Part shown: one piece after another, positions 1 through 54,918 of the stretch
Numbering within the stretch: the stretch's first letter is position 1
Layout of the letters: each line of letters starts with the position of its first letter
Source: Escherichia coli
GTDB lineage: Bacteria > Pseudomonadota > Gammaproteobacteria > Enterobacterales > Enterobacteriaceae
Reading direction: 5' to 3' (one strand)
Assembly: GCF_024223415.1 (NCBI RefSeq)
Contig: NZ_CP100500.1
DNA length: 64,000 bases
Notes under the pieces: model-generated
What the model was told of the DNA's origin: nothing
What the model saw: only the letters and a program-made list of their open reading frames with translations
Databases searched by the model: none
Translations under genes and position numbers: made by a program

Positions 1-205
1 TTTTTGGCGGTTACCATCGCCTCACCTTCCTGGTTCACACAAAGCAACCCTGATTTTCCATGAAAACTTCAGGGTTGAGCCAAAAGCACAAAGACAGTAG
101 ATTAACCAAGGGTACCCGCCACCTGCCAACAGGAACGGTATCCAGTACGTATTAATGACTGACAATTCACATTGCTGTTTTGCCCGCCAGAAGGTGGGCA
201 TTTTT
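1..205 (+). repeat. Tandem repeat unit 1 (~200 bp): 8-bp-stem hairpin near 46-78, then intrinsic terminator; sRNA-like, unrecognised; array continues left of window
   Basis: Window opens inside a T-run matching unit ends; about 80% identity to 203-410 over the core; GC hairpin plus T7 at 3' end. Confidence 0.5.
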
Positions 206-207
206 TT
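181..207 (+). terminator. Rho-independent terminator of repeat unit 1
   Basis: gcccgcc-agaa-ggtgggc hairpin followed by T7. Confidence 0.6.
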
Positions 208-410
208 GGCAGTTATCATGGACGCACCTTCATGACACATATTAAGCAGACCTGATTTTTCCATGAAAAATTCATGGTTGAGACAAAAGCACAAAAACAG
301 TAGATTAACCACGGGTGCCTGCCACCTGACAACAGGAAGGGGTGTCCATTATCCATGATATACAAACGAAAAGTCTTGTCTTTTGCCCGCCGTTGCGCGG
401 GCTTTTTTTT
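203..410 (+). repeat. Tandem repeat unit 2, paralogous to unit 1; 3' third diverged
   Basis: Aligns with 1-205 (shared tttttggc..ccacctt..cctgatttt(t)ccatgaaaa..ggttgag.caaaagcacaaa.acagtagattaacca.gggt.cc.gccacctg.caacaggaa); ends in GC hairpin plus T9. Confidence 0.5.
383..410 (+). terminator. Rho-independent terminator of repeat unit 2
   Basis: gcccgc-cgtt-gcgggc perfect hairpin followed by T9. Confidence 0.65.
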
Positions 411-440
411 TGCCACCCTCACCAGTGAGGGTACCATCAT

Positions 441-662
441 TCAGAGGCGCGTAAGCCACCCGGCGTTAACATCCTGCCCGTCAACCCTGACCGCAGAGTC
501 TGAACGGCAGGCACCGGAAGCAGTACCAAAAACACCTCTGACAAGTTCCGCCACCTTCCCGATATCATCAGGCGCCACATTCCTCACCTCGACAGTGATC
601 CGTGGCGTACCATCATCGTTAACAAGCGTGGCTTTAAGGCTGGTACGACGGGCAAATAACAT
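441..662 (-). CDS. Hypothetical 73-aa protein (MLFARRTSLKATLVNDDGTPRITVEVRNVAPDDIGK...), function unknown
   Basis: Internal ATG of ORF-track ORF 441..728(-); GGAGG-containing SD (cgaagGGAGGgggtgttgATG) about 8 nt upstream; no family recognised; lies antisense to a + strand terminator-bounded segment. Confidence 0.35.
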   Translation of the reverse strand: MLFARRTSLKATLVNDDGTPRITVEVRNVAPDDIGKVAELVRGVFGTASGACRSDSAVRVDGQDVNAGWLTRL

Positions 663-721
663 CAACACCCCCTCCCTTCGGTTCGTTGCACTGGCAGCAC
701 GATACCACCAGGAAAAAGAAA

Positions 722-755
722 AGCCCACAACGTCAGGATTGCGGGCTTTTTTTCT
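722..755 (+). terminator. Rho-independent terminator closing the segment upstream of the copA promoter
   Basis: gcccacaa-N8-ttgcgggc hairpin (one mismatch) followed by T7. Confidence 0.55.
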
Positions 756-820
756 TCAAAAATGGACACTACGTGGACACTGATTAAATAATCCTTTCTT
801 AATCAGACTGTTAAAATGCT

Positions 821-851
821 TGACCTTCCCCTTGCTGGAAGGTTTAACCTT
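821..851 (+). promoter_or_regulatory. copA promoter with CueR (MerR-family) operator: TTGACC -35, 19-bp spacer containing the CCTTCC..GGAAGG dyad, -10
   Basis: ttgaccttccccttgctggaaggtttaacct about 40 nt upstream of the copA ATG; long-spacer MerR-type architecture. Confidence 0.8.
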
Positions 852-889
852 TATCACAGCCAGTCAAAACTGTCTTAAAGGAGTGTTTT

Positions 890-3394
890 ATGTCACAAAC
901 TATCGACCTGACCCTGGACGGCCTGTCCTGCGGTCACTGCGTTAAACGCGTGAAAGAAAGTCTCGAACAGCGCCCGGATGTGGAACAAGCGGATGTGTCT
1001 ATCACTGAAGCGCACGTTACCGGGACTGCCAGTGCAGAACAGCTGATCGAAACCATCAAACAAGCGGGTTATGACGCATCTGTAAGCCACCCAAAGGCTA
1101 AACCGCTGGCGGAGTCATCAATCCCGTCGGAAGCACTGACAGCGGTTTCTGAGGCGCTTCCGGCAGCGACCGCCGATGACGATGACAGCCAGCAGTTGCT
1201 GCTGAGCGGCATGAGCTGCGCCAGCTGTGTCACCCGCGTACAAAATGCGTTGCAAAGCGTACCGGGCGTCACTCAGGCACGGGTAAACCTGGCGGAGCGT
1301 ACTGCGCTGGTGATGGGCAGTGCCTCCCCACAAGATTTAGTGCAGGCGGTGGAAAAAGCGGGCTACGGTGCGGAAGCGATTGAAGATGACGCGAAACGCC
1401 GCGAGCGCCAGCAAGAAACCGCCGTCGCTACGATGAAGCGCTTCCGCTGGCAGGCAATTGTTGCATTGGCTGTGGGTATCCCGGTAATGGTCTGGGGGAT
1501 GATCGGCGATAACATGATGGTCACCGCTGACAACCGCAGCCTGTGGTTGGTTATCGGCCTGATAACCCTGGCAGTGATGGTTTTCGCCGGCGGCCATTTT
1601 TACCGCAGTGCATGGAAAAGCCTGCTGAACGGTGCAGCGACGATGGATACGCTGGTGGCGCTGGGTACTGGCGTGGCGTGGCTCTATTCGATGAGCGTCA
1701 ACCTGTGGCCGCAATGGTTCCCGATGGAAGCGCGACATCTTTATTACGAAGCCAGCGCGATGATTATCGGTCTGATTAATCTCGGCCATATGCTGGAAGC
1801 GCGCGCACGTCAGCGTTCTTCAAAGGCGCTGGAGAAATTACTCGATTTAACTCCGCCGACGGCGCGCCTGGTTACTGACGAAGGTGAAAAAAGCGTGCCG
1901 CTGGCGGAAGTTCAGCCAGGCATGCTACTGCGCCTGACGACGGGCGACCGCGTGCCAGTAGATGGCGAGATTACCCAGGGCGAAGCATGGCTGGATGAAG
2001 CGATGCTGACGGGCGAACCTATTCCGCAGCAAAAAGGCGAAGGCGATAGCGTCCATGCCGGTACAGTGGTACAGGACGGTAGCGTGCTGTTTCGCGCCAG
2101 TGCGGTTGGTAGCCATACCACGCTATCAAGGATCATTCGTATGGTGCGCCAGGCCCAGAGCAGTAAGCCAGAAATCGGTCAGCTGGCGGATAAAATCTCA
2201 GCCGTATTTGTGCCGGTAGTAGTGGTTATTGCGCTTGTCAGTGCGGCAATCTGGTATTTCTTTGGTCCGGCACCGCAGATTGTCTATACCCTGGTGATTG
2301 CCACCACGGTGCTGATTATTGCCTGCCCGTGTGCGCTGGGGCTGGCGACGCCGATGTCGATTATTTCCGGCGTCGGGCGGGCGGCTGAGTTTGGCGTGCT
2401 GGTGCGGGACGCCGACGCGCTGCAACGCGCCAGTACACTCGATACCGTCGTGTTCGATAAAACCGGGACGCTGACCGAAGGGAAGCCGCAGGTTGTCGCA
2501 GTGAAAACATTTGCTGATTTTGACGAAGCGCAGGCGCTGCGTCTGGCGGCGGCACTGGAACAAGGTTCCAGCCATCCGCTGGCACGGGCGATCCTCGATA
2601 AAGCAAGCGATATGCAGCTGCCGCAGGTCAACGGTTTCCGCACATTGCGCGGGCTGGGCGTGAGCGGTGAAGCTGAAGGTCATGCGTTATTGCTGGGCAA
2701 TCAGGCGCTGTTAAATGACCAGCAAGTTGATACTAAAGCGATTGAAGCAGATATTTCAGCTCAGGCATCGCAAGGGGCAACGCCTGTGCTGCTGGCGGTT
2801 GACGGGAAAGCGGTAGCCCTGCTGGCTGTACGCGATCCGTTGCGTAGTGATAGCGTGGCGGCGCTGCAACGTCTGCATAAAGCGGGATATCGTCTGGTGA
2901 TGTTGACCGGGGATAACCCAACCACCGCCAATGCGATCGCCAAAGAAGCAGGGATTGATGAGGTGATCGCCGGGGTGCTGCCGGACGGTAAAGCCGAAGC
3001 GATTAAACGCCTGCAAAGTGAAGGACGTCAGGTGGCAATGGTGGGCGACGGCATTAACGACGCGCCAGCGCTGGCTCAGGCGGATGTCGGCATTGCGATG
3101 GGTGGCGGCAGTGATGTTGCTATTGAAACCGCGGCGATTACCCTGATGCGCCATAGCCTGATGGGTGTTGCGGATGCGCTCGCTATTTCCCGCGCAACGC
3201 TGCGCAACATGAAGCAGAACCTGCTCGGCGCGTTTATCTACAACAGTATCGGTATTCCGGTTGCCGCCGGTATTTTGTGGCCGTTTACTGGAACACTGCT
3301 TAACCCGGTGGTTGCCGGAGCGGCAATGGCGCTCTCGTCGATTACCGTAGTGAGTAACGCCAACCGGTTGCTGCGGTTTAAACCGAAGGAATAA
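890..3394 (+). CDS. copA: Cu(I)-exporting P-type ATPase CopA, 834 aa
   Basis: ORF track; two N-terminal GxxCxxC metal-binding domains, CPC, DKTGT and GDGIND motifs. Confidence 0.97.
1090..1096 (+). other. Programmed -1 ribosomal frameshift site in copA (slippery C CCA AAG) giving the short CopA(Z) chaperone
   Basis: cac cca aag gct at codons 67-70; the -1 frame reads aaa ggc taa and stops at once; reported for E. coli copA. Confidence 0.6.
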
Positions 3395-3399
3395 GTACG

Positions 3400-3524
<125 letters not shown>

Positions 3525-3592
3525 TGAACTGCACCCCAAATGTTGGACATAATCTGACATCTGAAGGTGCAGTTTATGAAACATTCATTTGA

Positions 3593-4096
3593 AGTAAAAC
3601 TGCCGCTGTAAATCATTACCTGGCCGGTCATGCAGGCATCATTTCTACGGCAAAACTCTTTCAACTTTCTCACACCAGCCTCTCACACTGGATTAATCTT
3701 TTTCTTCTTCACGGTCCTCAGGCACTGGATTGCAGACACAAGCGTAGCTATTCTCCTGAAGATAAACTTTGCGTGGTTCTTTATGCTCTCGGGCATTCTG
3801 AGTCTCTACCCCGGGTAGCTGCCCGGTTTAACATTCCCAGCCACAACATGGTTAAAAACTGGATAAAAGGCTACCGCAAATCTGGTAATGAGGCCTTTAT
3901 CAGGCGCAGGAAGGAGAAAAGCATGACCCGTTCTGATGATACCCATGAAAACGAGGCAAACATGACGCCGGAAGAGATGAAGAATGAGCTGCGTTATCTT
4001 CGCGCAGAAAATGCATATCTGAAAGCCATGCAGGAGCATCTCCTGGAAAAAAAGCGCCAGGAGCTGGAGAAAAAACGAAAGTCATCCAGAGCCTGA
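3593..4096 (+). CDS. IS3-family transposase OrfA (HTH); frame open from 3593 but no in-frame ATG, ORF track starts it at GTG 3773; likely 5' frameshifted
   Basis: Translation ..VNHYLAGHAGIISTAKLFQLSHTSLSHWINLF..RVAARFNIPSHNMVKNWIKGYRKSGNEAF.. plus leucine-zipper-like C-terminus; upstream ATG near 3576 is in another frame and stops after 11 codons. Confidence 0.6.
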   Translation, partial: SKTAAVNHYLAGHAGIISTAKLFQLSHTSLSHWINLFLLHGPQALDCRHKRSYSPEDKLCVVLYALGHSESLPRVAARFNIPSHNMVKNWIKGYRKSGNEAFIRRRKEKSMTRSDDTHENEANMTPEEMKNELRYLRAENAYLKAMQEHLLEKKRQELEKKRKSSRA

Positions 4097-4200
4097 AGTG
4101 CGGACACTGCCAGTCTGACCTGTTAAAGGCTGCAGGGCTGGCCAGAAGCACGCTGTACTACCAGCTGTCACTGCAGAAGGCTAAGGACAAGTATGCTGAT

Positions 4201-4955
<755 letters not shown>

Positions 4956-5122
4956 GTAAGCGTCGCATCAGGCAATGGTACTCGGATGCCGGATGCGGCG
5001 TGAACGCCTTATCCGGCCTACGGTTCAGGCACAGGTTTGTAGGCCTGATAAGACGCGTAAGCGTCGCATCAGGCAATGGTGCTCGGATGCCGGATGCGGC
5101 GTGAACGCCTTATCCGGCCTAC
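4956..5122. repeat. REP/BIME cluster, right part, immediately downstream of ybaQ
   Basis: Repeated gccggatgcggcgtgaacgccttatccggcctac and gcctgataagacgcgtaagcgtcgcatcaggc units. Confidence 0.8.
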
Positions 5123-5144
5123 GAGATGAAGCGATGTTTTGGCC

Positions 5145-5486
5145 TTACGCGACCTTTTTTGCACGCTCTTCACGGCGTGCCAAATATTCAGCCACTGTTT
5201 CAATCCGTCCCAATTCTTCCTGGGTACGCATGTTGTTTTCAACTTCCCAAAGATCAACTGCCGCCTGGAGGTTTAGCCAAAAATCGACTGTGGTATCAAA
5301 AACTTTCGCCAGACGGAATGCCATTTCAGTGGTGAGTTTACGATTATTATTGATCAGTGTACTGACGCTATTACGATGAACATGCAGCAACTCTGCTAAC
5401 TCATTGATTTTCAAAGAGAGCGGTTCCAGATATTCATAGAGAAGAATATCTCCGGGTGTCGTCGGTTTTCTTGTTGCCTGTTTCAT
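5145..5486 (-). CDS. ybaQ: HTH-type transcriptional regulator YbaQ, 113 aa
   Basis: ORF track, start set at MKQATRKPTT from recalled protein. Confidence 0.9.
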   Translation of the reverse strand: MKQATRKPTTPGDILLYEYLEPLSLKINELAELLHVHRNSVSTLINNNRKLTTEMAFRLAKVFDTTVDFWLNLQAAVDLWEVENNMRTQEELGRIETVAEYLARREERAKKVA

Positions 5487-5623
5487 AGTTTTTAACTGTT
5501 GCTTCCCTGTGAATAGCGATACAAGAACATACTGAATCATACAAACACATTAAACAAGTCCCCAACTCCATTTGCGCCATCCCTCCCCGCGCGCTAGCAT
5601 GATATTTCACAAAGGGAGGTCGT

Positions 5624-6418
5624 ATGGATCTGTTGTACCGGGTAAAAACGCTTTGGGCCGCGCTGCGCGGTAATCATTACTCCTGGCCTGCCATCGATAT
5701 CACCCTCCCCGGCAATCGCCATTTTCATCTGATTGGCAGTATTCATATGGGTAGCCACGATATGGCTCCCCTGCCCGCCCGTTTGCTCAAAAAGCTCAAA
5801 AACGCCGATGCGCTGATCGTCGAGGCGGATGTTTCCACCAACGATACGCCTTTTGCTAATTTGCCTGCCTGCGAGGCGCTGGAAGAGCGCATTAGCGAGG
5901 AGCAACTCCAAAAACTGCAGCACATTAGCCAGGAGATGGGCATTTCTCCCTCACTCTTTTCTACCCAACCGCTGTGGCAAATCGCGATGGTTCTTCAGGC
6001 GACGCAGGCACAAAAACTGGGGCTGCGGGCAGAATACGGTATCGATTACCAGCTATTGCAGGCGGCGAAGCAACAACATAAACCCGTGATTGAACTGGAA
6101 GGGGCGGAAAACCAGATTGCCATGTTGCTCCAGCTCCCTGACAAAGGACTGGCGCTGCTGGACGATACGCTGACCCACTGGCATACCAACGCACGGTTGC
6201 TGCAACAAATGATGAGCTGGTGGCTGAATGCGCCGCCGCAAAATAATGAAATAACGCTGCCCAATACGTTCAGTCAGTCGCTGTACGATGTGCTGATGCA
6301 TCAGCGAAATCTCGCCTGGCGGGATAAATTACGCGCCATGCCGCCGGGGCGATATGTGGTCGCGGTCGGTGCACTACACCTGTATGGAGAAGGGAATTTG
6401 CCGCAAATGTTGCGCTAA
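5624..6418 (+). CDS. ybaP: TraB-family protein YbaP, 264 aa
   Basis: ORF track; recalled protein and synteny. Confidence 0.9.
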   Translation: MDLLYRVKTLWAALRGNHYSWPAIDITLPGNRHFHLIGSIHMGSHDMAPLPARLLKKLKNADALIVEADVSTNDTPFANLPACEALEERISEEQLQKLQHISQEMGISPSLFSTQPLWQIAMVLQATQAQKLGLRAEYGIDYQLLQAAKQQHKPVIELEGAENQIAMLLQLPDKGLALLDDTLTHWHTNARLLQQMMSWWLNAPPQNNEITLPNTFSQSLYDVLMHQRNLAWRDKLRAMPPGRYVVAVGALHLYGEGNLPQMLR

Positions 6419-12149: not shown

Positions 12150-12262
12150 TTGCCGGATGTAAAATATGAAAAATATGTAGGCATGATAAGACGCGCCAGC
12201 GTCGCATCAGGCATCGAGATGCCAAATGCCAGATGCGGCGTGAACGCCTTATCTGGCCTACG
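12150..12262. repeat. REP/BIME elements between convergent ybaL and gsk
   Basis: gcatgataagacgcgccagcgtcgcatcaggc and gccagatgcggcgtgaacgccttatctggcctac. Confidence 0.8.
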
Positions 12263-12275
12263 AACCGACGATAAC

Positions 12276-13580
12276 TTAACGATCCCAGTAAGACTCTTCC
12301 AGGCTGTCTTCACGCTCCGGCAAGCCGCGCGTTAAACGAGGTGAATGCTGGTTCAGTACCTGATAGCTCACACGGTTAGCATATTTACACACCTGCGCTA
12401 ACGATGAATAAGTTAACCAGGTGAATTTATGTTTGCTGGAGTTTGGTACGTTGCTACGGTGGTAGCTGTTGGCGGTAATGTCATGCAGCAACGCTGCCAG
12501 TGCGCCATCCCCTGCTCCGTTGGTGTTCATGATTTTTTCCGGCCCGCCCATGTACGGCGCAATGTGCGAATAGACGCGCAGCGGATTCTGGCAATCCTTG
12601 TGGCGCATGGCGCGGCTAAACTCATACTGGTTGAATTCGGCTATAGCGCCCGGCAGCAACGGATGCTGGGTTTTACGTTTCGCTTCGTCTTCGGTAAAGC
12701 CCGCCATATACAAGCCGATTGGCCCGGCGGTGCACAGCACCAGATCAACCCAGTCCAGTGCCTTGTCAGATGCTAACAACGGATCGCTTTCTCCGGTCAA
12801 CGCTTCGGCTTCATCTTCGTTCATCGCAAGGATAGAGACGTGGTCTTTGAGGAATTGCTGCCACCACTGCGGATTCTCGGCAATGACAAACTTAGTTCCC
12901 AGCGTCAGCACCACCGGTACGTTATATTTCTTCGCGTACTCAATGGCTTTCATGGTTGCTTCCGGCATGGGTTCACCCGGCTTGCAACGCACCAGATAAG
13001 AGGTGAGAACCAGAGCCGAGGCTCCGGCAATCACATCTTCCGGAATACTTTCAGCCCGCAGCTGGTTCATGTGGCCAGGGCTGATAGCAAAGGTACGTTC
13101 CCCGGACTCGCCAATCAGCGTAAAGCAACGACCAATCGGGCCATCCACGCCTTGTAGATAGTTAAGATCGGTACGGCTGGAGGTGTTACACAGGTAACGA
13201 TAGGCATAGCTGCCAATTTCAATATTGCTGCACATGACGCCCAGCAGCACCGAACGGTCGTCCGCGAGCACCGAGTAGTTATGCATGGTGTTACCAATGG
13301 TGCCACCCGCAAACTGATGGGTAATCAGGTTTTTCTGTTTTAGTTCCTGATAAAGCGCTTCGGCTACATCATCCTCAATCACCAGTGAATGCCCGGCGCT
13401 TAATCCATAACGCTCAATGAATTCATCATCCACTTTCGCTTCAATATCGACCAGCGTTTGATCGATACCCACTACCCAGGCGGCGCTGGTTTCGTTTTCT
13501 GGCTGGAATTGCTGAAGCAGCGGATCGCGTGCATTTACGGGGAAGTAATGTTTGGATTTACGTTTACCGGGAAATTTCAT
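12276..13580 (-). CDS. gsk: Inosine-guanosine kinase Gsk, 434 aa
   Basis: ORF track; recalled protein. Confidence 0.95.
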   Translation of the reverse strand: MKFPGKRKSKHYFPVNARDPLLQQFQPENETSAAWVVGIDQTLVDIEAKVDDEFIERYGLSAGHSLVIEDDVAEALYQELKQKNLITHQFAGGTIGNTMHNYSVLADDRSVLLGVMCSNIEIGSYAYRYLCNTSSRTDLNYLQGVDGPIGRCFTLIGESGERTFAISPGHMNQLRAESIPEDVIAGASALVLTSYLVRCKPGEPMPEATMKAIEYAKKYNVPVVLTLGTKFVIAENPQWWQQFLKDHVSILAMNEDEAEALTGESDPLLASDKALDWVDLVLCTAGPIGLYMAGFTEDEAKRKTQHPLLPGAIAEFNQYEFSRAMRHKDCQNPLRVYSHIAPYMGGPEKIMNTNGAGDGALAALLHDITANSYHRSNVPNSSKHKFTWLTYSSLAQVCKYANRVSYQVLNQHSPRLTRGLPEREDSLEESYWDR

Positions 13581-13731
13581 GGTTGTTTTTACGGGTGGTT
13601 AACTGAGCGGCGAATGTTAACACAATCTGACGGGAGCGCGCGAGACGCAGCCAGTTTCAATATCAGCAGGCGGGATCGCATTTTCATGGCAGTGGTTCCT
13701 TACAATGACGTAATTTGAAAGGAGTTTTTGT

Positions 13732-14691
13732 ATGAAGCCGGAAAACAAATTACCTGTTCTGGACCTTATTTCTGCTGAAATGAAGACCGTTGTGAATACT
13801 CTTCAGCCGGATTTACCGCCCTGGCCCGCAACGGGAACGATTGCTGAGCAACGACAGTATTACACGCTTGAGCGCCGATTCTGGAATGCGGGCGCTCCAG
13901 AAATGGCAACCAGAGCTTACATGGTTCCAACAAAATATGGGCAGGTGGAAACACGTCTCTTTTGTCCGCAGCCAGATAGCCCAGCGACGCTATTTTATTT
14001 GCATGGAGGCGGTTTTATTCTCGGCAATCTCGATACCCACGATCGCATCATGCGCCTGCTGGCAAGCTACAGCCAATGTACGGTGATTGGTATTGATTAC
14101 ACCCTTTCACCTGAAGCGCGTTTTCCGCAAGCGATAGAGGAAATTGTGGCTGCTTGTTGTTATTTCCACCAGCAGGCGGAGGATTATCAAATCAATATGT
14201 CCCGCATTGGCTTTGCCGGTGATTCCGCAGGTGCCATGCTGGCGCTCGCCAGTGCGTTGTGGTTGCGTGATAAACAGATCGATTGCGGTAAAATTGCGGG
14301 TGTTTTGCTGTGGTATGGTCTTTACGGATTACGGGATTCCGTGACTCGTCGTCTGTTGGGCGGTGTCTGGGATGGCTTAACGCAACAGGATTTGCAGATG
14401 TATGAAGAGGCGTATTTAAGCAACGACGCGGACCGCGAGTCGCCGTATTACTGTCTGTTTAATAATGATCTCACTCGCGAAGTTCCGCCCTGTTTTATTG
14501 CCGGGGCGGAGTTCGATCCGCTGCTGGATGACAGCCGTCTGCTTTACCAGACGTTAGCGGCGCATCAGCAGCCCTGTGAGTTCAAACTCTACCCAGGCAC
14601 GCTGCACGCCTTTTTGCATTATTCACGGATGATGAAAACCGCGGACGATGCTCTTCACGACGGCGCTCAGTTCTTTACCGCTCAGCTTTAG
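13732..14691 (+). CDS. aes: Acetyl esterase Aes, 319 aa
   Basis: ORF track; HGGGF and GDSAG motifs. Confidence 0.95.
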
Positions 14692-15650
14692 CGATACGCG
14701 GCAACAAGATTAGCCATCATTTCGATATGTTCCGGCGTGGCATTAAGCGCCGGAATATATTCATATTTTTTCCCGCCGGCACCGAGGAAGACCTCACGGT
14801 TTTGCTCGGCAATCTCTTCCAGCGTCTCCAGACAATCCGCAGCAAAGCCCGGGCACATCACCTGAATATGACCTACGCCTTTTTCTCCGAGCATTTTCAG
14901 CGTTTCGTCGGTATAAGGCATCAGCCAGGGTTCCCGACCAAAGCGCGACTGAAAGGTCATCATCACTTTTTCCGGTGCCATCCCCAGTGCGGAAGCCAGT
15001 TCGCGAGTCGTTGTGCGGCAACGTTGCGGGTAATCATCGCCTTCATCTGCATAACGCTGGGGAATGCCATGATAAGAGAGCAGCAGCAGATCCGGTTCGC
15101 CATGTTTGGCAAAAGAAGCGCGTACGCTGTTCGCCAGTGCATTAATGTAATCGTGGTTATCGGCGTAATCACGTATAAACGATATCCCCGGAATGCTACG
15201 TTTGCGCGCCAGAATGCGTGCAAGTTCATCCCATACCGCACCGACCGTAGAACAGGAGAATTGCGGATAAAGCGGCAGCACCACAATATGATCTACATGC
15301 TCTGCCAGGAGTTCATCTACGGCGCTTTCCAGTGATGGCGAGCCGTAGCTCATTCCCAGCGCTACGGGCGTCTCCGGTAAACGTTGTGCCAGCGCCTGCT
15401 GTTGCTGGCGGCTGTAAACCATCAGCGGCGAGCCACCTTCCATCCAGACAGAGGCATACAGCTTCGCCACACGCGGCGAGCGCAGCGGCAAAATCACGCC
15501 ACGCAGCAACGGCCACCATAACAACCGTGAGGTATCAACCACGCGTCTGTCGCTTAAAAATTGTTTCAGATAGCGTTTTACCGCTTCAGGTGTGGGGGCA
15601 TCGGGCGTACCCAGGTTTGCCAGCAGGATACCGGTTTTAGTCTGACGCAT
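14688..15650 (-). CDS. hemH: Ferrochelatase HemH, 320 aa
   Basis: ORF track; recalled protein; 3' end overlaps aes by 4 nt. Confidence 0.95.
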
Positions 15651-15781
15651 TACCGCCTCTTATCGATTCAACTTGTTGATAATTGTAGCGGAAAAGTGAG
15701 GAAGAAGAACTAATTGCTGTGAGAGGTATTGCCTGAGGTGGATGAGCAGACCTGCCCGAAAGCAGATCTGCTGCGGCTTGA

Positions 15782-16498
<717 letters not shown>

Positions 16499-16606: not shown

Positions 16607-18481
16607 TCAGGAAAGCAGCAGCTGGTTCATACGACGAATAAACAGGTTCGGATCTTCCAGCGTGCCGCGTTCTGCCAGCAGCGCCTGATCCAGCAGCAGT
16701 TCTACCCACTCGCTGAACTTCGCTTCATCTTCAGTATCTGCCGCACGTTTCACCAGTACGTGATCCGGGTTCAGTTCGAAGATGTATTTCACTTCCGGCA
16801 CTTTCTGGCCCGCTGCGGCAAACAGTTTCGCCATCTGAGTGCTCATTTCGTCCGCATCAGTAGAGACAATCGCTGGCGTATCGGTCAGACGGTGAGTCAG
16901 ACGGACATCTTTCACGCGCTCGCCGAGCAGGGCTTTCACACGGTCGATGAACGGAGTCAGTGCTTTCTCCGCTTCTTTCGCGCTCTCATCAACTTCGTCA
17001 GCCAGTTTTTCCAGCGACTCGTCAACTTTAGACACCGACTGGAACGGTTTACCGTCGAACTCAGTCAGATAGTTCATCATCCACTCATCGATGCGGTCGG
17101 AAAGCAGCAGAACTTCGATGCCTTTCTTACGCAGCAGTTCCAGGTGCGGGCTGCTCTTCGCTGCCGCATAGCTGTCTGCAGTGATGTAGTAGATTTTCTC
17201 CTGCCCTTCTTTCATGCGGGAAACGTAGTCTTCCAGAGACACGGTCTGCGCAGAAGAATCGGTATGAGTAGAAGCAAAACGCAGCAGTTTGGCGATCGCT
17301 TCCTGGTTAGCGAAATCTTCCGCCGGACCTTCTTTCAGTACCAGGCCAAACTGTTGCCAGAAGGTCTGGTATTTTTCCGCGTCGTCTTTCGCCAGTTTTT
17401 CCAGCATTTGCAGCACACGCTTGGTCAGCGCATTGCGCAGGTTACGCGTTACCGTGCTGTCCTGGAGGATTTCACGGGAAACGTTCAGCGGCAGATCGCT
17501 GGAGTCAATCAGACCACGCACGAAGCGCAGATAGTTCGGCATGAACTGTTCTGCGTCGTCCATGATGAACACACGCTGAACATACAGTTTCAGACCGTGT
17601 TTATGATCACGGTTCCACATATCCCACGGAGCCTGGGACGGGATGTACAGCAGGCTGGTGTACTCCTGCTTACCTTCAACACGGTTGTGGCTCCAGGTCA
17701 GCGGATCGTTAAAGTCGTGGGCGATGTGTTTGTAGAACTCTTTGTACTCTTCATCGGTGATTTCCGACTTGTTACGAGTCCACAGCGCCTGCGCTTTGTT
17801 GATTTTTTCCCAGGAGATAACGGTTTCGCCGTCTTTCTCTTCGCGTTTTTCGATCTCTACCGGCAGCGCGATATGGTCGGAGTATTTGCTGATGATGGAA
17901 CGCACGCGCCAGTCATCGAGGAACTCGTCTTCGCCTTCACGCAGATGCAGGGTGATTTCAGTACCACGATCTTCTTTGGTGATGTCGGCAACGGTGTATT
18001 CACCTTCGCCAGCCGATTCCCAGAAGACGCCATTTTCTGGTTTTTCGCCTGCCGCGCGAGTACGCACGGTCACTTTGTCGGCCACGATAAACGCAGAGTA
18101 GAAACCAACACCAAACTGACCGATCAGCTGGCTGTCTTTCGCCTGGTCAGAACCCAGGGATTCGAGGAATGATTTGGTACCGGATTTAGCGATAGTCCCC
18201 AGATGGTCAATCACTTCGTCGCGGGTCATCCCCACGCCGTTATCGGAGATGGTCAGCGTGCGCTTGTCTTTATCGAAAGAGACACGAACGCGCAGTTCGC
18301 CATCACCTTCGTACAGGTCCGGGTTAGAGAGCGCACGGAAACGCAGCTTGTCCGCCGCATCGGAGGCGTTAGAGATAAGCTCACGCAGGAAGATTTCTTT
18401 ATTGGAATAGAGAGAATGGATCATCAGGTGCAGAAGCTGTTTCACTTCTGACTGAAAACCACGAGTTTCTTGTCCTTTCAT
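16607..18481 (-). CDS. htpG: Chaperone HtpG (Hsp90), 624 aa
   Basis: ORF track; recalled protein. Confidence 0.97.
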
Positions 18482-18590: not shown

Positions 18591-19195
18591 TTAAAAACGA
18601 ATCTTATGACGCCCGGCAAGGGAGTGTGACAGCGTGGTGCCATCGACCATTTCCAGTTCGCCGCCAACCGGTACGCCATGAGCGATTCGGCTGGCTTCCA
18701 CGTCATATTGCGCGCAAAGCTCGGCAATGTAGTTAGCGGTAGCTTCACCTTCAACCGTGGGATTGGTGGCGAGGATCACTTCAGTGATTTTTTCCTCTGC
18801 CAGACGCTGTTCCAGACGATCAAGCCCGATATCATCCGGACCGATGCCGTCCAGCGGTGACAGATGTCCCATCAACACAAAATAACGACCTGAAAACTGC
18901 CCCGTCTGCTCAATGGCGTAAATGTCCGCCGGACTCTCCACCACGCAGATTTGACCGTTTTCCTGACGACGCGGATTCGAACAGATGTTACAGACTTCCT
19001 GTTCGGTGAAGGTGCGGCAATCGGCGCAGTGGCCGATTTCCGACATCGCCCGGGTGAGCGCCTGCGCCAGACGCATCCCGCCGCTACGATCGCGCTGAAG
19101 CAGCGTGAACGCCATACGCTGCGCCGACTTCGGGCCAACGCCCGGCAGACAGCGCAGTGCTTCCATAAGCTGTGTTAACAGCGGGCTGGTTTGCA

Positions 19196-19196
<1 letters not shown>
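18591..19196 (-). CDS. recR: Recombination protein RecR, 201 aa
   Basis: ORF track; C4 zinc finger and Toprim-type motifs. Confidence 0.96.
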
Positions 19197-19540
<344 letters not shown>

Positions 19541-19577: not shown

Positions 19578-21515
19578 TCAAATGGGGCGGATACTTTCTT
19601 CATCCAGCTCCGCATCGAAAAACCGACGCAGGGTCTGAATATTATTATCCGCAATAATGGACTCGCGCGCCTGCGCAAGTTTTTCTTCGTATATCGCCTG
19701 ACGCCACTCCAGCGGCGTACGCACCGCGGGATTATCATCTTCAACGATAGTCAGTTCAACCGTTGAACCTTTTAACATGCTCAACGCTTCAGCCAGTTTT
19801 TGCTGTGCACCGCGGTTGTTCAAATGCCGCTGAGAGGAGCGCAAATGCAGACATACTGCGTTGTCGCTCTCCTCTTTCCAGGCATTTAACGCCACCTGTT
19901 CGACCAGTTTTGGTAGCGAAAGTTGGCTCACCTGTGCCGCCCACGGGTCGCGCTCAATGGCTTCTGCCGCTAGCTTCGCCGCCAGTTCCGGCGTTTTTTC
20001 ATGTTCCAGCGCTTTTTTCAGCGCCTTCGGCGTGGCGACCACTTCTTTTTGCTGTATCACCGGAGTGGTCGCCTTCCAGCGATACGCTTCTTTTTTGGCT
20101 GGCGCTTTTTCCAGCGCCGATGGCACCGGACGCGCCTGAACGCGATCGGTGACCGAAGCCAGTCTTTCCAGCGCAGCGTTATTCACCGGCCGCGCGCGGG
20201 TAGCGGCTGCCGGTTCACTCTTTTTTGCTTTGGTTGCTCCCTGCACGCGCTGCAACTGCTGGCGCGCCGCCAGCACCTGGCTGGTGGTTTCCGGGAGCGG
20301 TACAGTCGGTGCCTGCTGCGGCGCTGATTGCGGTTGCGGTTGCGGCGGCACCTGGGTTGGCGTCATTACTGCCGTTGGCGCGACGGGTGCAAAGGACTGG
20401 CGTGGCACTTCTGGCTCAGGCAGCGGCATACGCGGATGGAACGCCAGCGCGCGCAGCAGCGTCATCTCAACGCCCATGCGGCGGTCCGGCGCATACGGTA
20501 ATTCTTTGCGACCAATCAACAGCGTCTGATAGTAAAGCTGAATATCCGTCGGCGGTATGGTGCGCGCCAGTTCACGCATCCGCAGCTCGATGGCGGCCAT
20601 GTCGTTGCCAAGTGCAGCAGGCGAAAGTTGTACCATCGCAATACGATGCAACAGGCCGAGCATTTCCACCAGCAACGCTTCCCACTCGATACCACGGGCA
20701 GCGGCTTCATTAATCAGCGCCATTACGCGCTCGCCGTTGGCCTCGACCATCGCTTCAACCAGCGACAGCGCCTGATCGTCGTCAAGCGTACCCAGCATCG
20801 CACTGACCGCCTGGGTTGAAACCTGGCCGTCACCGCTGGCAATCGCCTGGTCGGTCAGACTTAAGGCATCTCGCAGGCTGCCTTCAGCGGCGCGCGCCAG
20901 CAATTGCAGCGCCCGCGGCTCGTGAGCGATATGTTCTTCATTGAGGATGTGCTCAAGTTGATGGCGAATTTGCTCGACATCCAGCGCCTTGAGATGAAAT
21001 TGCAAACAGCGCGACAAAATCGTCACCGGCAATTTCTGTGGATCGGTCGTCGCCAGCAGAAACTTAACGTGCTCCGGCGGCTCTTCAAGAGTTTTTAACA
21101 GTGCGTTAAAGCTGTGGCGCGACAGCATATGCACTTCGTCGATGAGATAAACTTTGAAACGACCACGCGCCGGAGCGTACTGGACGTTATCCAGCAGGTC
21201 GCGAGTGTCTTCAACTTTGGTGCGCGAGGCGGCGTCGATTTCAATCAGATCGACAAAGCGCCCCTGCTCGATTTCACGACAGTTATCGCACACGCCGCAC
21301 GGCGTCGCGGTAATGCCGGTTTCGCAGTTTAGCCCCTTCGCCAGCAGTCGGGCGATAGAGGTTTTTCCGACGCCACGGGTACCGGAAAAAAGATAAGCAT
21401 GATGAATACGCCCTAACGACAAGCCGTTCGCCAGTGCGGTCAGCACATGTTCCTGGCCGACGACGTCAGCAAAGGTTTGTGGGCGCCATTTTCGGGCTAA
21501 GACCTGATAACTCAT
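19578..21515 (-). CDS. dnaX: DNA polymerase III tau/gamma subunit DnaX, 645 aa in this sequence
   Basis: ORF track; Walker A GTRGVGKT; internal recoding site. Confidence 0.96.
   Translation of the reverse strand: MSYQVLARKWRPQTFADVVGQEHVLTALANGLSLGRIHHAYLFSGTRGVGKTSIARLLAKGLNCETGITATPCGVCDNCREIEQGRFVDLIEIDAASRTKVEDTRDLLDNVQYAPARGRFKVYLIDEVHMLSRHSFNALLKTLEEPPEHVKFLLATTDPQKLPVTILSRCLQFHLKALDVEQIRHQLEHILNEEHIAHEPRALQLLARAAEGSLRDALSLTDQAIASGDGQVSTQAVSAMLGTLDDDQALSLVEAMVEANGERVMALINEAAARGIEWEALLVEMLGLLHRIAMVQLSPAALGNDMAAIELRMRELARTIPPTDIQLYYQTLLIGRKELPYAPDRRMGVEMTLLRALAFHPRMPLPEPEVPRQSFAPVAPTAVMTPTQVPPQPQPQSAPQQAPTVPLPETTSQVLAARQQLQRVQGATKAKKSEPAAATRARPVNNAALERLASVTDRVQARPVPSALEKAPAKKEAYRWKATTPVIQQKEVVATPKALKKALEHEKTPELAAKLAAEAIERDPWAAQVSQLSLPKLVEQVALNAWKEESDNAVCLHLRSSQRHLNNRGAQQKLAEALSMLKGSTVELTIVEDDNPAVRTPLEWRQAIYEEKLAQARESIIADNNIQTLRRFFDAELDEESIRPI
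20220..20226 (-). other. dnaX programmed -1 frameshift site (A AAA AAG) with downstream stem-loop, producing gamma
   Basis: Plus strand cttttttgc is the reverse complement of gcAAAAAAGag; GC-rich stem-loop at about 20170-20215. Confidence 0.8.
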
Positions 21516-34983: not shown

Positions 34984-36540
34984 ATGCTGGTGAGAACACG
35001 ACATCTGGTCGGCCTTATTTCGGGAGTACTGATTCTTTCAGTATTGCTGCCTGTCGGCTTAAGCATCTGGCTGGCCCATCAGCAGGTAGAAACATCGTTT
35101 ATTGAAGAGCTGGATACCTATTCCTCCCGCGTCGCTATTCGGGCCAATAAGGTGGCGACACAAGGGAAAGATGCGCTGCAAGAGCTGGAAAGATGGCAAG
35201 GCGCTGACTGTAGTGAAGCCCATCTCATGGAAATGCGTCGGGTATCTTACAGTTATCGCTATATTCAGGAAGTGGTTTATATCGATAACAACGTTCCCCA
35301 ATGTTCGTCTCTGGAGCATGAAAGTCCGCCCGATACCTTCCCCGAGCCAGGTAAAATTTCGAAAGATGGTTATCGTGTCTGGTTAACATCACATAACGAT
35401 TTAGGCATTATCCGTTACATGGTCGCCATGGGAACGGCACATTATGTCGTCATGATCGACCCCGCTTCCTTTATTGATGTCATTCCCTATAGCTCATGGC
35501 AAATTGATGCCGCCATTATTGGCAATGCCCATAACGTTGTCATAACCAGCAGCGATGAAATTGCTCAGGGAATTATTACCAGGCTACAAAAAACACCCGG
35601 TGAGCATATCGAAAATAATGGAATCATTTACGATATCCTGCCCTTCCCGGAGATGAATATTTCAATTATCACCTGGGCTTCAACGAAAATGTTGCAGAAA
35701 GGCTGGCATCGGCAAGTCTTTATTTGGTTACCGCTCGGGTTGGTGATTGGCCTGCTGGCAGCGATGTTTGTGCTGCGTATTTTGCGCCGTATCCAGTCAC
35801 CGCATCATCGGCTGCAGGATGCTATCGAAAATCGTGATATTTGCGTGCACTATCAGCCGATTGTCTCCTTAGCCAATGGCAAAATTGTCGGTGCTGAGGC
35901 ACTGGCGCGCTGGCCGCAGACAGACGGTAGTTGGTTGTCACCAGATAGTTTTATTCCGCTGGCACAGCAAACGGGCCTTTCTGAGCCATTGACGCTACTG
36001 ATTATAAGAAGCGTCTTTGAAGATATGGGCGACTGGCTGCGTCAGCATCCACAGCAGCATATTTCGATCAATCTTGAATCCACCGTGCTCACCTCGGAAA
36101 AAATCCCGCAATTGCTGCGTGAAATGATCAATCACTATCAGGTTAATCCCAGACAGATCGCGCTTGAACTCACTGAACGCGAGTTTGCCGATCCGAAAAC
36201 CAGCGCCCCGATAATTTCTCGCTACCGGGAGGCGGGCCATGAAATTTATCTTGATGATTTTGGTACGGGGTATTCAAGTTTAAGTTATTTACAGGATCTG
36301 GATGTCGACATTCTGAAGATCGATAAATCTTTCGTTGATGCGCTGGAATATAAAAATGTCACGCCGCATATCATCGAAATGGCAAAAACACTGAAACTGA
36401 AAATGGTAGCGGAGGGAATCGAAACCAGTAAACAAGAAGAGTGGCTACGCCAGCATGGCGTGCACTACGGTCAGGGCTGGCTCTACAGCAAGGCATTACC
36501 GAAAGAAGATTTCTTACGCTGGGCCGAGCAACATTTGTGA
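34984..36540 (+). CDS. pdeB: c-di-GMP phosphodiesterase PdeB (YlaB), CSS-motif sensor plus EAL domain, about 516-518 aa; start uncertain by a few codons
   Basis: ORF track; N-terminal TM, periplasmic domain, second TM, EAL domain. Confidence 0.9.
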   Translation: MLVRTRHLVGLISGVLILSVLLPVGLSIWLAHQQVETSFIEELDTYSSRVAIRANKVATQGKDALQELERWQGADCSEAHLMEMRRVSYSYRYIQEVVYIDNNVPQCSSLEHESPPDTFPEPGKISKDGYRVWLTSHNDLGIIRYMVAMGTAHYVVMIDPASFIDVIPYSSWQIDAAIIGNAHNVVITSSDEIAQGIITRLQKTPGEHIENNGIIYDILPFPEMNISIITWASTKMLQKGWHRQVFIWLPLGLVIGLLAAMFVLRILRRIQSPHHRLQDAIENRDICVHYQPIVSLANGKIVGAEALARWPQTDGSWLSPDSFIPLAQQTGLSEPLTLLIIRSVFEDMGDWLRQHPQQHISINLESTVLTSEKIPQLLREMINHYQVNPRQIALELTEREFADPKTSAPIISRYREAGHEIYLDDFGTGYSSLSYLQDLDVDILKIDKSFVDALEYKNVTPHIIEMAKTLKLKMVAEGIETSKQEEWLRQHGVHYGQGWLYSKALPKEDFLRWAEQHL

Positions 36541-36581
36541 ATTTTTGGGCTGACGGCACGCCGCACAGCCCGTCACGCTAC

Positions 36582-36935
36582 CTATTCGTCGATGATTGAC
36601 TCGAATCCGCCATAGATCATTCGCTTGCCGTCAAACGGCATGGACTCGCCGAACTCTTTCATCCGTGGGTCCGACATCATCTTTTGATTAGCTGCGTCGC
36701 GGACCTCTTTTGAAGGGTATTCAATCCAGCTAAAGACAACCTCTTCATTCTCTTCCGCTTTCACCGCCATATGAAAATCGGTCACTTTGCCATCCGGTAC
36801 ATCGCTGGCCCAGCATTCGACAATACGAAGCGCGCCAAACTCTTTAAACAATGGCGCGGACTTAGCGGCCATTTCCCGATAGGCATCCTTTTTATCGGCA
36901 GGAACGGCAACCACAAAACCATCAACATACTTCAT
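36582..36935 (-). CDS. ybaA: DUF1428-family protein YbaA, 117 aa
   Basis: ORF track; recalled protein. Confidence 0.9.
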   Translation of the reverse strand: MKYVDGFVVAVPADKKDAYREMAAKSAPLFKEFGALRIVECWASDVPDGKVTDFHMAVKAEENEEVVFSWIEYPSKEVRDAANQKMMSDPRMKEFGESMPFDGKRMIYGGFESIIDE

Positions 36936-37044: not shown

Positions 37045-37158
37045 TGGGTGGGGGCCCTGCCAGCTACATCCCGGCACACGCGTCATCTGCCTTGGCTGCT
37101 TCCTTCCGGACCTGACCTGGTAAACAGAGTAGCGTTGCGGGAGAACCAACAGAGCCCC
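37045..37158 (-). ncRNA. ffs: 4.5S RNA, SRP RNA component
   Basis: Reverse complement begins GGGGGCTCTGTTGGTTCTCCCGCAACGCTACTCTGTTTACCAGGTCAGGTCCGGAAGGAAGCAGCCAAGGCAGATGACGCGTGTGCCGGGATGTAGCTGGCAGGGCCCCCACCC, matching recalled 114-nt 4.5S RNA; ybaA-atl intergenic. Confidence 0.93.
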
Positions 37159-37625: not shown

Positions 37626-37655
37626 CCCTCTCCGGGCGGAGAGGGTTAACGTCGC

Positions 37656-38228
37656 TTAATATTGCGTAGGAGCTGGAACTGCCGAAGACGGATTCACCTG
37701 AGTTGGTGAAGTCGAAGGTACGGTAGTCGTTGCGCCACCGCTGGCCTGAACCGGCACGGCGGTTTGCTGTACCGGCACCAATGTCAGGTCGGCTTTAGTT
37801 CCGCCCTGGTTGATCACCGGCTGAACGGTATCGGTAATAAATACCAGTTTGTCATTCACGGTAATCGCCGCACTCAACAGAATACGCGCGTTCGGCTGAA
37901 CATCTGCCGGGTTAAATGGCAGAACAAAGCTGAATGGTGACTGTTTACCTTCGGTACGCACCGCTTTTTGCGCCAGTACTTTAGACGGCGCATCGGCTAA
38001 CGACGCGTCAGAAAGTGTCACGGTCAGCACGGCATCAGGCGGCAGTGCGACTTTCTGACGGATCCAGACGGTACCGGAGACATTCGGTTGCTGGATAGCA
38101 GGTTGTTGTGTTGCTGAAATAGACGTATTTGCAGCCGGTGCTGGCGTCTGAATATCCGCGCTTTTATCTGCGCAAGCCGCCAACGCAATCGCAACCGCTA
38201 AACCACTGGCCATGTGCACGAGTTTCAT
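37656..38228 (-). CDS. ybaY: Lipoprotein YbaY, 190 aa
   Basis: ORF track; signal peptide with lipobox LAAC. Confidence 0.9.
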   Translation of the reverse strand: MKLVHMASGLAVAIALAACADKSADIQTPAPAANTSISATQQPAIQQPNVSGTVWIRQKVALPPDAVLTVTLSDASLADAPSKVLAQKAVRTEGKQSPFSFVLPFNPADVQPNARILLSAAITVNDKLVFITDTVQPVINQGGTKADLTLVPVQQTAVPVQASGGATTTVPSTSPTQVNPSSAVPAPTQY

Positions 38229-41189: not shown

Positions 41190-44736
<3,547 letters not shown>

Positions 44737-54731: not shown

Positions 54732-54813
54732 AGAGCTCTCTCTTAGTTTAATTTCCGCCAGGTAATCAGATGACACGACTGTGCTTCACGCCATCTATTA
54801 ACATGTACGTCAG

Positions 54814-54842
54814 TATATGGGGATGTTTCCCCCACATTCAAC
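54814..54842 (-). promoter_or_regulatory. Sigma-32 heat-shock promoter of lon (TTGAA -35, CCCCATAT -10)
   Basis: Minus strand reads cgttgaatgtgggggaaacatccccatatactgacg upstream of lon. Confidence 0.75.
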
Positions 54843-54918
54843 GCCGAGAATAGAGGAAAAATTAAAGGGGAGATAAAATCCCCCCTTTTTGGTTAACTAA
54901 TTGTATGGGAATGGTTAA

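Follow-up and report, generated by a model that had tools for sequence, protein, structure and literature searches.

It may be asked of three gene junctions in one stretch of Escherichia coli DNA, here called the window (the whole 64,000 nucleotides analysed), whether the tight packing of the genes couples their expression or whether the overlaps are the usual product of a compact genome. An earlier note on this DNA had proposed that aes and hemH overlap at their 3′ ends by four nucleotides, that the ybaB stop and the recR start share one nucleotide and that the mdlA stop lies eight nucleotides inside mdlB. It had further proposed that the first overlap implies transcripts invading the opposite gene and that the other two indicate translational coupling. 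The sequence read-out and the lists of open reading frames (ORFs) reproduce every position of the three overlaps, and the features concerned are the following:

13732..14691, plus strand: aes (acetyl esterase), CDS of 319 aa, stop TAG at 14689-14691 (ORF list, Pfam Abhydrolase_3 2.9e-58, RefSeq)
14688..15650, minus strand: hemH (ferrochelatase), CDS of 320 aa, stop TAA as the reverse complement of 14688-14690 (ORF list, Pfam, RefSeq)
14688..14691, no strand assigned: TTAG, 4-nt convergent stop/stop overlap of aes and hemH (sequence)
19196..19525, minus strand: ybaB, CDS of 109 aa, stop TGA at 19198-19196 (Pfam YbaB_DNA_bd 3.4e-35, RefSeq)
18591..19196, minus strand: recR, CDS of 201 aa, ATG at 19196-19194, without Shine-Dalgarno sequence (ORF list, Pfam RecR domains)
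19194..19198, minus strand: TGATG, 1-nt stop/start overlap of ybaB and recR (sequence)
42964..44736, minus strand: mdlA, CDS of 590 aa, GTG start, stop TAG at 42966-42964 (ORF list, Pfam ABC_membrane and ABC_tran, K-12 annotation)
41190..42971, minus strand: mdlB, CDS of 593 aa, ATG at 42971-42969 (translation, Pfam ABC_membrane and ABC_tran, K-12 annotation)
42964..42971, minus strand: ATGCGTAG, 8-nt overlap of the mdlB start and the mdlA stop (sequence)

The three junctions are very probably unrelated to each other and represent compact, ordinary arrangements of the E. coli core chromosome that each fall into a well-described class. The overlaps of one, four and eight bases are real and conserved across Enterobacterales, yet they were annotated before and are of the types most often met where bacterial genes overlap. 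As each junction lies in a very frequent class it is statistically unremarkable, by which it is not meant that it is a chance artefact. For co-directional genes of E. coli the most frequent distance is −4, followed by −1 and −8, and 707 of 2,987 pairs are spaced at −8 to +6 (Huber et al., 2023, PMC10666635). For convergent genes [CT]TA[AG] is the canonical stop/stop tetramer; 58 convergent overlaps were counted in E. coli with a jump at length 4, which was attributed to CTAA, TTAA, CTAG and TTAG (Lillo and Krakauer, 2007, PMC2174442).

Overlaps of this kind could be artefacts of annotation, produced by wrongly chosen start codons or mis-called ORFs, and the ORF list offers alternative starts on paper, in which a GTG at 43085 would lengthen the mdlB frame upstream and a TTG at 19540 that of ybaB. 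Against this, the aes/hemH overlap is set by stop codons alone, in two ORFs with full-length Pfam matches; for HemH the Ferrochelatase match (1.1e-114) reaches residue 317 of 320. At the N-terminus RecR and the solved structure of Pseudomonas aeruginosa RecR (PDB 5z2v) align from the first residue of each, and the recR ATG is invariant in 48 loci. The mdlB ATG, replaced by GTG in three contigs, is conserved together with a GGAGG 5-7 nt upstream in at least 62 contigs, with alignments starting from residue 1, and a longer mdlB would enlarge the overlap rather than abolish it. The conserved recR and mdlB starts, the RecR alignment and the Pfam matches led to the rejection of an artefact, which is now hardly conceivable. 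Reannotation had been named in the earlier note as what might overturn the overlaps; the stops are secure, a shift of the recR or mdlB start is unlikely, and the annotation of K-12 MG1655 has the same overlaps, with hemH at 498055-499017 and aes at 499014-499973, the ybaB end and the recR start both at 494405, and the mdlA end at 470643 with the mdlB start at 470636. Strain SCU-316, which is 100% identical to positions 13500-15800 of the window, also carries the same overlaps in its RefSeq annotation.

At the convergent junction the ends of the two ORFs, 14691 on the plus strand and 14688 on the minus strand, leave TTAG in common, which holds both stop codons and the third base of the last sense codon of each gene. 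It has the form [CT]TA[AG], common to stops on opposite strands, and both ORFs are genuine genes. Nearly every complete E. coli genome (5,423 of 5,426) carries the aes-hemH region. In species loci where a full-length aes adjoins hemH the 4-nt overlap is found in 19 of 26; four of the others overlap by 10-11 nt, in one the genes abut and in two a 2-nt gap separates them. Pantoea, Pluralibacter, Trabulsiella and others possess the gene order adk-hemH-gsk without aes, and in genera lacking aes the hemH-gsk spacer measures 55-110 nt. The overlap would have originated with aes occupying the place that is this short spacer elsewhere.

With no spacer between aes and hemH, transcription of either gene must end within its partner. 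On the minus strand downstream of 14688 the scan found no intrinsic terminator for hemH, and the 141-nt fold is no better than that of shuffled sequences (z = −0.23). The hemH-sense strand downstream of the stop instead carries the following feature:

14250..14430, minus strand: C-rich, G-poor hemH-sense RNA (C/G about 2) antisense to aes, likely rut/Rho zone for hemH read-through (C/G scan)

Windows of 78 nt across 14430-14250 give C/G ratios of 1.9-2.4, so that the RNA here is untranslated, C-rich and G-poor, as is characteristic of RNA upstream of Rho release sites. In K-12 a Rho termination region of the class “antisense aes” was reported at 499332 on the plus strand, 315 nt downstream of the hemH stop codon (Adams et al., 2021, PMC7815308, Supplementary file 2); the peak maps to about position 14373 of the window. 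Its Rho score is 4.07 (p = 6.2e-10), a score of coarse resolution because it was computed in 800-nt windows, and the reads were 79 upstream and 24 downstream without bicyclomycin but 422 and 522 with it (PMC7815308). Rho termination of hemH read-through is shown by these published data. Since this region lies antisense to aes and overlapping coverage of the pair was published as an excludon (PMC12288877), hemH-strand transcripts do enter aes, and the proposal that transcripts at this junction invade the opposite gene holds. Untranslated beyond the stop, the hemH-strand RNA continues antisense to aes for about 300 nt, and Rho terminates it at the C-rich stretch.

In the opposite direction a terminator for aes is predicted within the coding sequence of hemH:

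14724..14771, plus strand: predicted intrinsic terminator of aes inside the hemH CDS, starting 33 nt after the aes stop (terminator scan, fold)

The hairpin has a 15-bp stem at 14724-14761 with the core UUCCGGCG/CGCCGGAA, of which 8 bp form a GC-rich core, and is followed by CAUAUUUUUU at 14762-14771. It possesses the GC-rich stem-loop and subsequent U-rich tract downstream of a stop codon that characterise intrinsic terminators, and it appears in the MFE and centroid structures alike. The upstream folding energy of −23.3 kcal/mol ranks second among the 250 runs of five or more T in the window. Judged from these sequence features, aes RNA would most likely end at the hairpin and U-tract encoded by about codons 297-309 of hemH. 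A hairpin with T5 of equal strength also lies antisense within htpG, where no gene end is close by. No 3′ end of aes at the hairpin (K-12 about 498,934-498,944) is contained in the tables of Adams et al. (2021, PMC7815308), which list none between K-12 498,9xx and 499,4xx; aes was possibly poorly expressed there.

The hairpin is found in all species that carry aes, with a degraded U-tract in Citrobacter species in which HemH reads KQYEYI. It is built of preferred codons for conserved HemH residues (I-P-A ... T-P-E). As a marker of the presence of aes it was rejected, as Trabulsiella loci without aes retain it. No compensatory changes and only one double-sided change were observed in the covariation analysis, and shuffle controls were not exceeded. 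One-sided changes preserve G-U pairing on the aes-sense strand, where 94.4% of the cells in the hairpin are paired compared with 78.7% on the hemH-sense strand; this strand asymmetry is the sole hint, and phylogeny and third-position NNG->NNA transitions confound it.

What this arrangement does for the two genes can be read in several ways. It stands at an even chance that the overlap is a neutral by-product of aes lying in a very short spacer, in which case the overlap of transcripts would be tolerated noise that Rho removes, and codon choice would have produced the hairpin by coincidence. The narrow space between hemH and gsk in genera without aes is consistent with this, as is the length of the overlap, which drifts from −2 to +11 nt between species. 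The hairpin follows the amino-acid sequence of HemH, survives in Trabulsiella without aes and shows neither covariation nor a mapped 3′ end, and aes became a pseudogene in E. albertii and in Escherichia sp. E1V33 with hemH unchanged. Set against neutrality, the tail-to-tail contact is kept in 26/26 species loci with intact aes, the hairpin with its U-tract matches bona fide terminators of the window in strength at a position 33 nt past the aes stop, and the G-U pairs are preserved on the aes-sense strand.

A functional excludon, in which antisense overlap with cleavage by RNase III, or collision of polymerases, would make hemH and aes mutually inhibitory, is unlikely. The pair hemH-aes is listed among the convergent excludons of MG1655 (Table 1 of the ExcludonFinder study; Sanmartin et al., 2025, PMC12288877), a class defined there as pairs whose sense and antisense RNA-seq coverage overlaps in 50% of samples or more, so that hemH-aes is assigned to it by transcript coverage only, whereas the excludon concept turns, in functional terms, on reciprocal regulation. 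Of 165 convergent excludon pairs 146 have a terminator that lies within the adjacent gene, as is predicted for aes, and the arrangement is conserved in Escherichia, Salmonella and Citrobacter; Rho, however, holds hemH read-through low, as seen from the 79 reads upstream and 24 downstream when bicyclomycin is absent. Aes is known as an antagonist of MalT. Between ferrochelatase and Aes no functional link is known, which likewise argues against mutual inhibition. Still more doubtful is a wider proposal, by which hemH-aes would be an antisense module under selection since the ancestor of Escherichia, Salmonella and Citrobacter: codons 297-309 would be under the dual constraint of HemH residues and aes terminator, and Rho-limited read-through from hemH together with read-in from aes would reciprocally tune ferrochelatase and Aes.

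The ybaB/recR junction belongs to the ordinary compact class of stop/start overlaps. The two genes do share one nucleotide, T19196, within TGATG read from 19198 to 19194 on the minus strand, which places them among same-strand pairs with a stop/start overlap of 1 or 4 nt as known for coupled genes. Of 56 enterobacterial loci 48 retain the −1 overlap T[GA]ATG, with a spread from Escherichia to Pantoea and Rosenbergiella. The best anti-SD duplex of recR amounts to −1.5 kcal/mol, and with recR lacking a Shine-Dalgarno sequence, ribosomes that finish ybaB most likely start again on the overlapping AUG. The TGATG overlap of trpB-trpA is the classical example of such termination-reinitiation. In reporter tests 13 of 14 pairs whose stop and start codons overlap were strictly coupled (Huber et al., 2019, PMC6728339). 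From its sequence recR is most likely translationally coupled to ybaB, as the earlier note had proposed; translation of recR would proceed by termination-reinitiation at TGATG, and RecR synthesis would then depend on the translation of ybaB. In the Keio deletion of ybaB, which gives this dependence indirect support, the level of RecR protein is low, and the strain is UV-sensitive for this reason (PMC8547470). The drop of RecR in this mutant could be partly transcriptional or an effect of the cassette. In the part of the published Term-seq data considered here, 3′ ends lie at 494017, where dnaX ends, and at 495042, past recR; the junction of ybaB with recR has no entry there.

At the mdlA/mdlB junction ATGCGTAG was confirmed at 42971-42964 of the minus strand, and the downstream gene possesses a ribosome binding site:

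42978..42984, minus strand: GAGGAGG, Shine-Dalgarno sequence of mdlB within the last mdlA codons, 6 nt upstream of the ATG (sequence)

The genes lie on the same strand at a distance within the −8 to +6 range of coupled pairs, and 62 of 68 metagenome contigs share the −8 overlap, ATGC[GA]TA[AG], even where MdlB identity falls to 83%. The anti-SD duplex of mdlB (−11.8 kcal/mol) is the strongest of the 11 starts compared in the window. With so strong a Shine-Dalgarno sequence independent initiation is possible, and it is conceivable, though rather less than probable, that ribosomes are recruited to mdlB de novo, the 8-nt overlap being compaction only. The rank of the duplex favours this alternative, as does the GGAGG, which is conserved in the metagenome contigs although the C-terminal tail of MdlA varies, and for the −8 class a lower efficiency of reinitiation was reported (PMC10666635). 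It is opposed by the −8 phase and the octamer being conserved in the same 62 contigs, and by the Shine-Dalgarno sequence lying within translated mdlA, so that ribosomes on mdlA necessarily cross it. Furthermore, both genes encode ABC half-transporters, and among pairs spaced at −8 to +10 nt the subunits of heteromeric complexes are over-represented 4.5-fold (PMC10666635). Translational coupling of mdlB to mdlA is plausible. The mRNA of mdlA would then yield MdlB either by reinitiation aided by the Shine-Dalgarno sequence or by initiation that this sequence drives once it is opened by ribosomes translating mdlA, an arrangement which would keep the two half-transporters in step.

The significance of these junctions is small, as they illustrate textbook effects of genome compaction, namely interlocking of stop codons, a predicted terminator embedded in the coding sequence of the neighbour, the removal of antisense read-through by Rho and probable coupling of stop and start. 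The excludon listing of hemH-aes, the Rho region antisense to aes and the drop of RecR in the ybaB deletion are already in the literature. The details given here for the first time are the aes hairpin in hemH codons, the contrast of recR without and mdlB with a strong, conserved Shine-Dalgarno sequence, and the position of aes in the hemH-gsk spacer. In practice, deletions or recoding close to these junctions can have polar effects on the partner gene, as with knockouts of ybaB, synonymous recoding of the hemH 3′ end or tags on the MdlA C-terminus; the ybaB/recR case is already documented.

Compared with known systems, aes/hemH does not differ from the convergent stop/stop overlaps described by Lillo and Krakauer (2007, PMC2174442) and presumably is one of their 58 E. 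coli cases. The terminator predicted for aes, embedded in the neighbouring gene, would fit the “overlapping terminator” criterion of the ExcludonFinder excludons. In Adams et al. (2021) Rho terminates read-through RNA that is untranslated or antisense; the read-through of hemH shows the same features, with a bicyclomycin-sensitive region at a C-rich, G-poor stretch. The pairs tested experimentally by Huber et al. (PMC6728339, PMC10666635) are others than ybaB/recR and mdlA/mdlB. The former resembles their termination-reinitiation pairs in having TGATG (−1) and a downstream start without Shine-Dalgarno sequence. Set beside the coupled pairs of Huber et al. (2019, 2023), mdlA/mdlB is an ATGNNTAG (−8) pair encoding two ABC half-transporter subunits; it departs from termination-reinitiation pairs in the strong Shine-Dalgarno sequence of mdlB, so that de novo initiation may contribute.

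The three gene overlaps, formed by the convergent aes (+) and hemH (-) and by the minus-strand pairs ybaB/recR and mdlA/mdlB, are real and withstand re-annotation. A re-annotation that would remove them is ruled out by the aes/hemH overlap being set by the stop codons alone, by the alignment of RecR from residue 1 with its conserved start, and by the conserved ATG and GGAGG of mdlB. The window belongs to the E. coli core chromosome, its 64 kb being reversed relative to K-12 MG1655 (approximately 449.6-513 kb there), with 99.0% alignment identity to K-12 from window position 12705 to 47607. Strain SCU-316 shows 100% identity over window 13500-15800, a segment present at a cut-off of at least 90% identity in 5,423 of 5,426 complete E. 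coli genomes. All six gene identities are backed by Pfam, and the same three overlaps are found in the RefSeq annotation of SCU-316 and in the curated K-12 MG1655 record. Among the annotated pairs in the window, overlaps occur at these three junctions only, and the remaining convergent pairs are separated by 30-211 nt.

The sequence read-out and the list of open reading frames place the two convergent genes as follows:
13732-14691, plus strand, aes, with the stop codon TAG at 14689-14691
14688-15650, minus strand, hemH, with the stop codon TAA as reverse complement of 14688-14690
The 3' ends therefore overlap by 4 nt at 14688-14691, as claimed in the earlier note, with TTAG as the common sequence. 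For each gene the stop codon overlaps the stop codon of the partner and the third base of its last sense codon (CTT, Leu, in aes; CGC, Arg, in hemH), and thus nearly no coding information is common to both. At the other end of hemH, the adk-hemH spacer (window 15651-15781) comprises 131 nt vs 235 nt in K-12, which corresponds to an indel of approximately 105 nt, and a Rho termination region was reported 5 nt inside hemH (K-12 498060, Rho score 4.02) (Adams et al., 2021).

A search with HemH, scanning one genome per species, returned 72 loci. Of these, 26 species loci combine hemH with a full-length aes in tail-to-tail orientation, namely those of Escherichia, Salmonella enterica subsp. arizonae and diarizonae, numerous Citrobacter and a single Trabulsiella. 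A 4-nt overlap is present in 19 of the 26, a 10-11-nt overlap in four, an abutting junction in one and a 2-nt gap in two. Pantoea, Rosenbergiella, Pluralibacter, Superficieibacter, Trabulsiella guamensis and others carry no aes at this site; there gsk follows hemH on the same strand at a distance of 55-110 nt. We infer that aes sits in what is a minimal hemH-gsk spacer in other genera, and because of this the junction would have lacked space for an intergenic terminator from the common ancestor of Escherichia, Salmonella and Citrobacter onwards. In E. albertii and Escherichia sp. E1V33 aes is a truncated or deleted pseudogene, and in the latter the common tetramer CTAA is mutated to CCAA, so that hemH is extended by two codons to a TGA.

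The earlier note had further proposed that transcripts invade the opposite gene, which is supported by published data. For hemH, the terminator scan found no terminator-like site, and the RNA 3' of its stop codon folds no better than shuffled sequences. A Rho termination region of the class 'antisense aes' was mapped to K-12 499332 (+), with a coverage of 79 upstream and 24 downstream without bicyclomycin vs 422 and 522 with bicyclomycin (Rho score 4.07, p = 6.2e-10) (Adams et al., 2021). This position maps to approximately window 14373, 315 nt beyond the hemH stop codon, within 14430-14250, the sole stretch of that strand with a C/G ratio of about 2. Furthermore, hemH-aes is listed among the 165 convergent excludons of MG1655, i.e., convergent pairs with overlapping sense and antisense RNA-seq coverage (ExcludonFinder, PMC12288877). 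Two further convergent pairs of the window are likewise catalogued as MG1655 convergent excludons, ybaA-pdeB (approximately 36540-36600; 41-nt gap in K-12) and ybaY-ybaZ (approximately 37640-37670; 30-nt gap in K-12).

For aes, the terminator scan and folding predicted one hairpin, which begins 33 nt past the aes stop codon:
14724-14761, plus strand, predicted 15-bp hairpin with the core UUCCGGCG/CGCCGGAA, followed by CAUAUUUUUU
With a folding energy of -23.3 kcal/mol upstream of its T run it ranks second of 250 runs of at least five T in the window, on par with terminator-like hairpins right at gene ends (e.g., after htpG and between amtB and tesB). The hairpin is coded by the HemH residues I-P-A-L-N-A-T-P-E and the U-tract by K-K-Y-E-Y-I. 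It was found in every aes-bearing species, and across 26 species pairing is kept in 94.4% of cells on the aes-sense strand vs 78.7% on the hemH-sense strand. The difference stems from the one-sided changes, which are of the C-to-U type and leave G-U pairs intact. Across these 26 species no compensatory covariation was detected and shuffle controls were not exceeded. The arms encode conserved residues by their preferred codons, the hairpin is retained in Trabulsiella loci that lack aes, and the U-tract is degraded in Citrobacter species with HemH KQYEYI. The Term-seq listing of Adams et al. (2021) contains no 3' end at this position. Taken together, the hairpin is a likely, unproven candidate for an aes terminator embedded within hemH. 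The top-ranked hairpin with a T5 run of the whole window (17322-17376, plus strand, -24.0 kcal/mol) lies antisense within htpG with no gene end nearby and may be due to chance.

At ybaB/recR the minus strand reads TGATG from 19198 to 19194, and the ybaB TGA and the recR ATG share T19196, confirming the 1-nt overlap. Of 56 loci, ranging from Escherichia to Pantoea and Rosenbergiella (RecR identity 84-91% in the latter two), 48 preserve T[GA]ATG, the recR ATG is unchanged in 48 loci, and RecR aligns with the solved structure of P. aeruginosa RecR (5z2v) from the first residue of each. No Shine-Dalgarno (SD) sequence was found for recR, the best anti-SD duplex having -1.5 kcal/mol vs -5 to -12 kcal/mol for most other starts tested. 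It was shown that the Keio ybaB mutant is UV-sensitive through low RecR protein and not through missing YbaB, and the authors see a disturbance of initiation or coupling as the cause of such downstream effects (PMC8547470). Gene pairs whose stop and start codons overlap were strictly coupled in 13 of 14 cases in reporter tests (PMC6728339). Termination-reinitiation appears to be the best-supported mechanism at ybaB/recR. In Pluralibacter-type genomes (comparison loci L025, positions 3623-6384, L028, L029, L030 and L069) an insert of 2.0-2.8 kb precisely separates the ybaB stop codon from the recR ATG and disrupts the otherwise conserved TGATG junction; the ORFs of the L025 insert, the one examined for its gene content, code for a LysR regulator (-), a pirin (+) and an isochorismatase-family protein (+). 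Intestinirhabdus has a 164-nt spacer between ybaB and recR.

The 8-nt overlap of mdlA and mdlB likewise holds, the minus strand from 42971 to 42964 being ATGCGTAG with the mdlB ATG and the mdlA TAG. A metagenome scan that used a degenerate MdlB motif outside the junction yielded 68 contigs with both genes; the overlap was computed as -8 with the octamer ATGC[GA]TA[AG] in 62, the octamer was visible in fragmentary hits in three, and three contigs at 82% identity have a -14 overlap. Orthologues down to 83% identity retain the mdlB ATG with alignments from residue 1 (GTG in three contigs), and GGAGG 5-7 nt before the start is conserved while the C-terminal tail of MdlA varies. The SD duplex of mdlB (-11.8 kcal/mol) is the strongest among 11 starts tested. 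Pfam assigns both proteins as ABC half-transporters, and a 4.5-fold enrichment for heteromeric complexes was reported for pairs spaced by -8 to +10 nt, while reinitiation at -8 overlaps is less efficient than at -1 or -4 (Huber et al., 2023; PMC10666635). Translational coupling is thus a plausible reading for mdlA and mdlB, with a possible contribution of SD-driven initiation to mdlB translation.

Other features of the window were assigned as follows, the RNAs by Rfam (the last four at gathering score):
approximately 3575-4924, IS1397 transposase, IS3-family, with programmed frameshift
3451-3524 and 4987-5060, 74-nt repeats bracketing IS1397
5042-5119 and 12180-12258, naRNA4 (REP-derived)
20181-20245, minus strand, DnaX frameshift element
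54803-54898, plus strand, sraA
6417-6500, minus strand, sroB (ChiX)
37055-37151, minus strand, 4.5S/SRP RNA
The arrangement of IS1397, its bracketing repeats and the naRNA4 hits is consistent with insertion of the IS into a REP/BIME cluster. Upstream of copA, window 1-818 is a P2-like prophage end and not the usual glsA; in strain GF60 this sequence neighbours ogr/Delta and late control D, and at least 80% of window 1-900 was present in only 16 of the complete E. coli genomes (n = 5,426).

All three junctions belong to very common overlap classes. Convergent overlaps jump at length 4, and 19 of the 58 convergent overlaps in E. coli have the rho-independent terminator of one gene inside the partner (Lillo and Krakauer, PMC2174442). 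Codirectional genes of E. coli are most often spaced by -4, next by -1 and then by -8, and 707 of 2,987 pairs fall between -8 and +6 (Huber et al., 2023; PMC10666635). Both published data and the conservation observed in this analysis support the earlier interpretation. Small additions of the present work are the contrast between the SD-less recR and the strong SD of mdlB, the strong candidate for an aes terminator within hemH and the probable placement of aes in the hemH-gsk spacer. Nothing is new in kind; the overlaps are in the reference annotation, their classes are textbook and hemH-aes is a catalogued excludon with a mapped Rho region.
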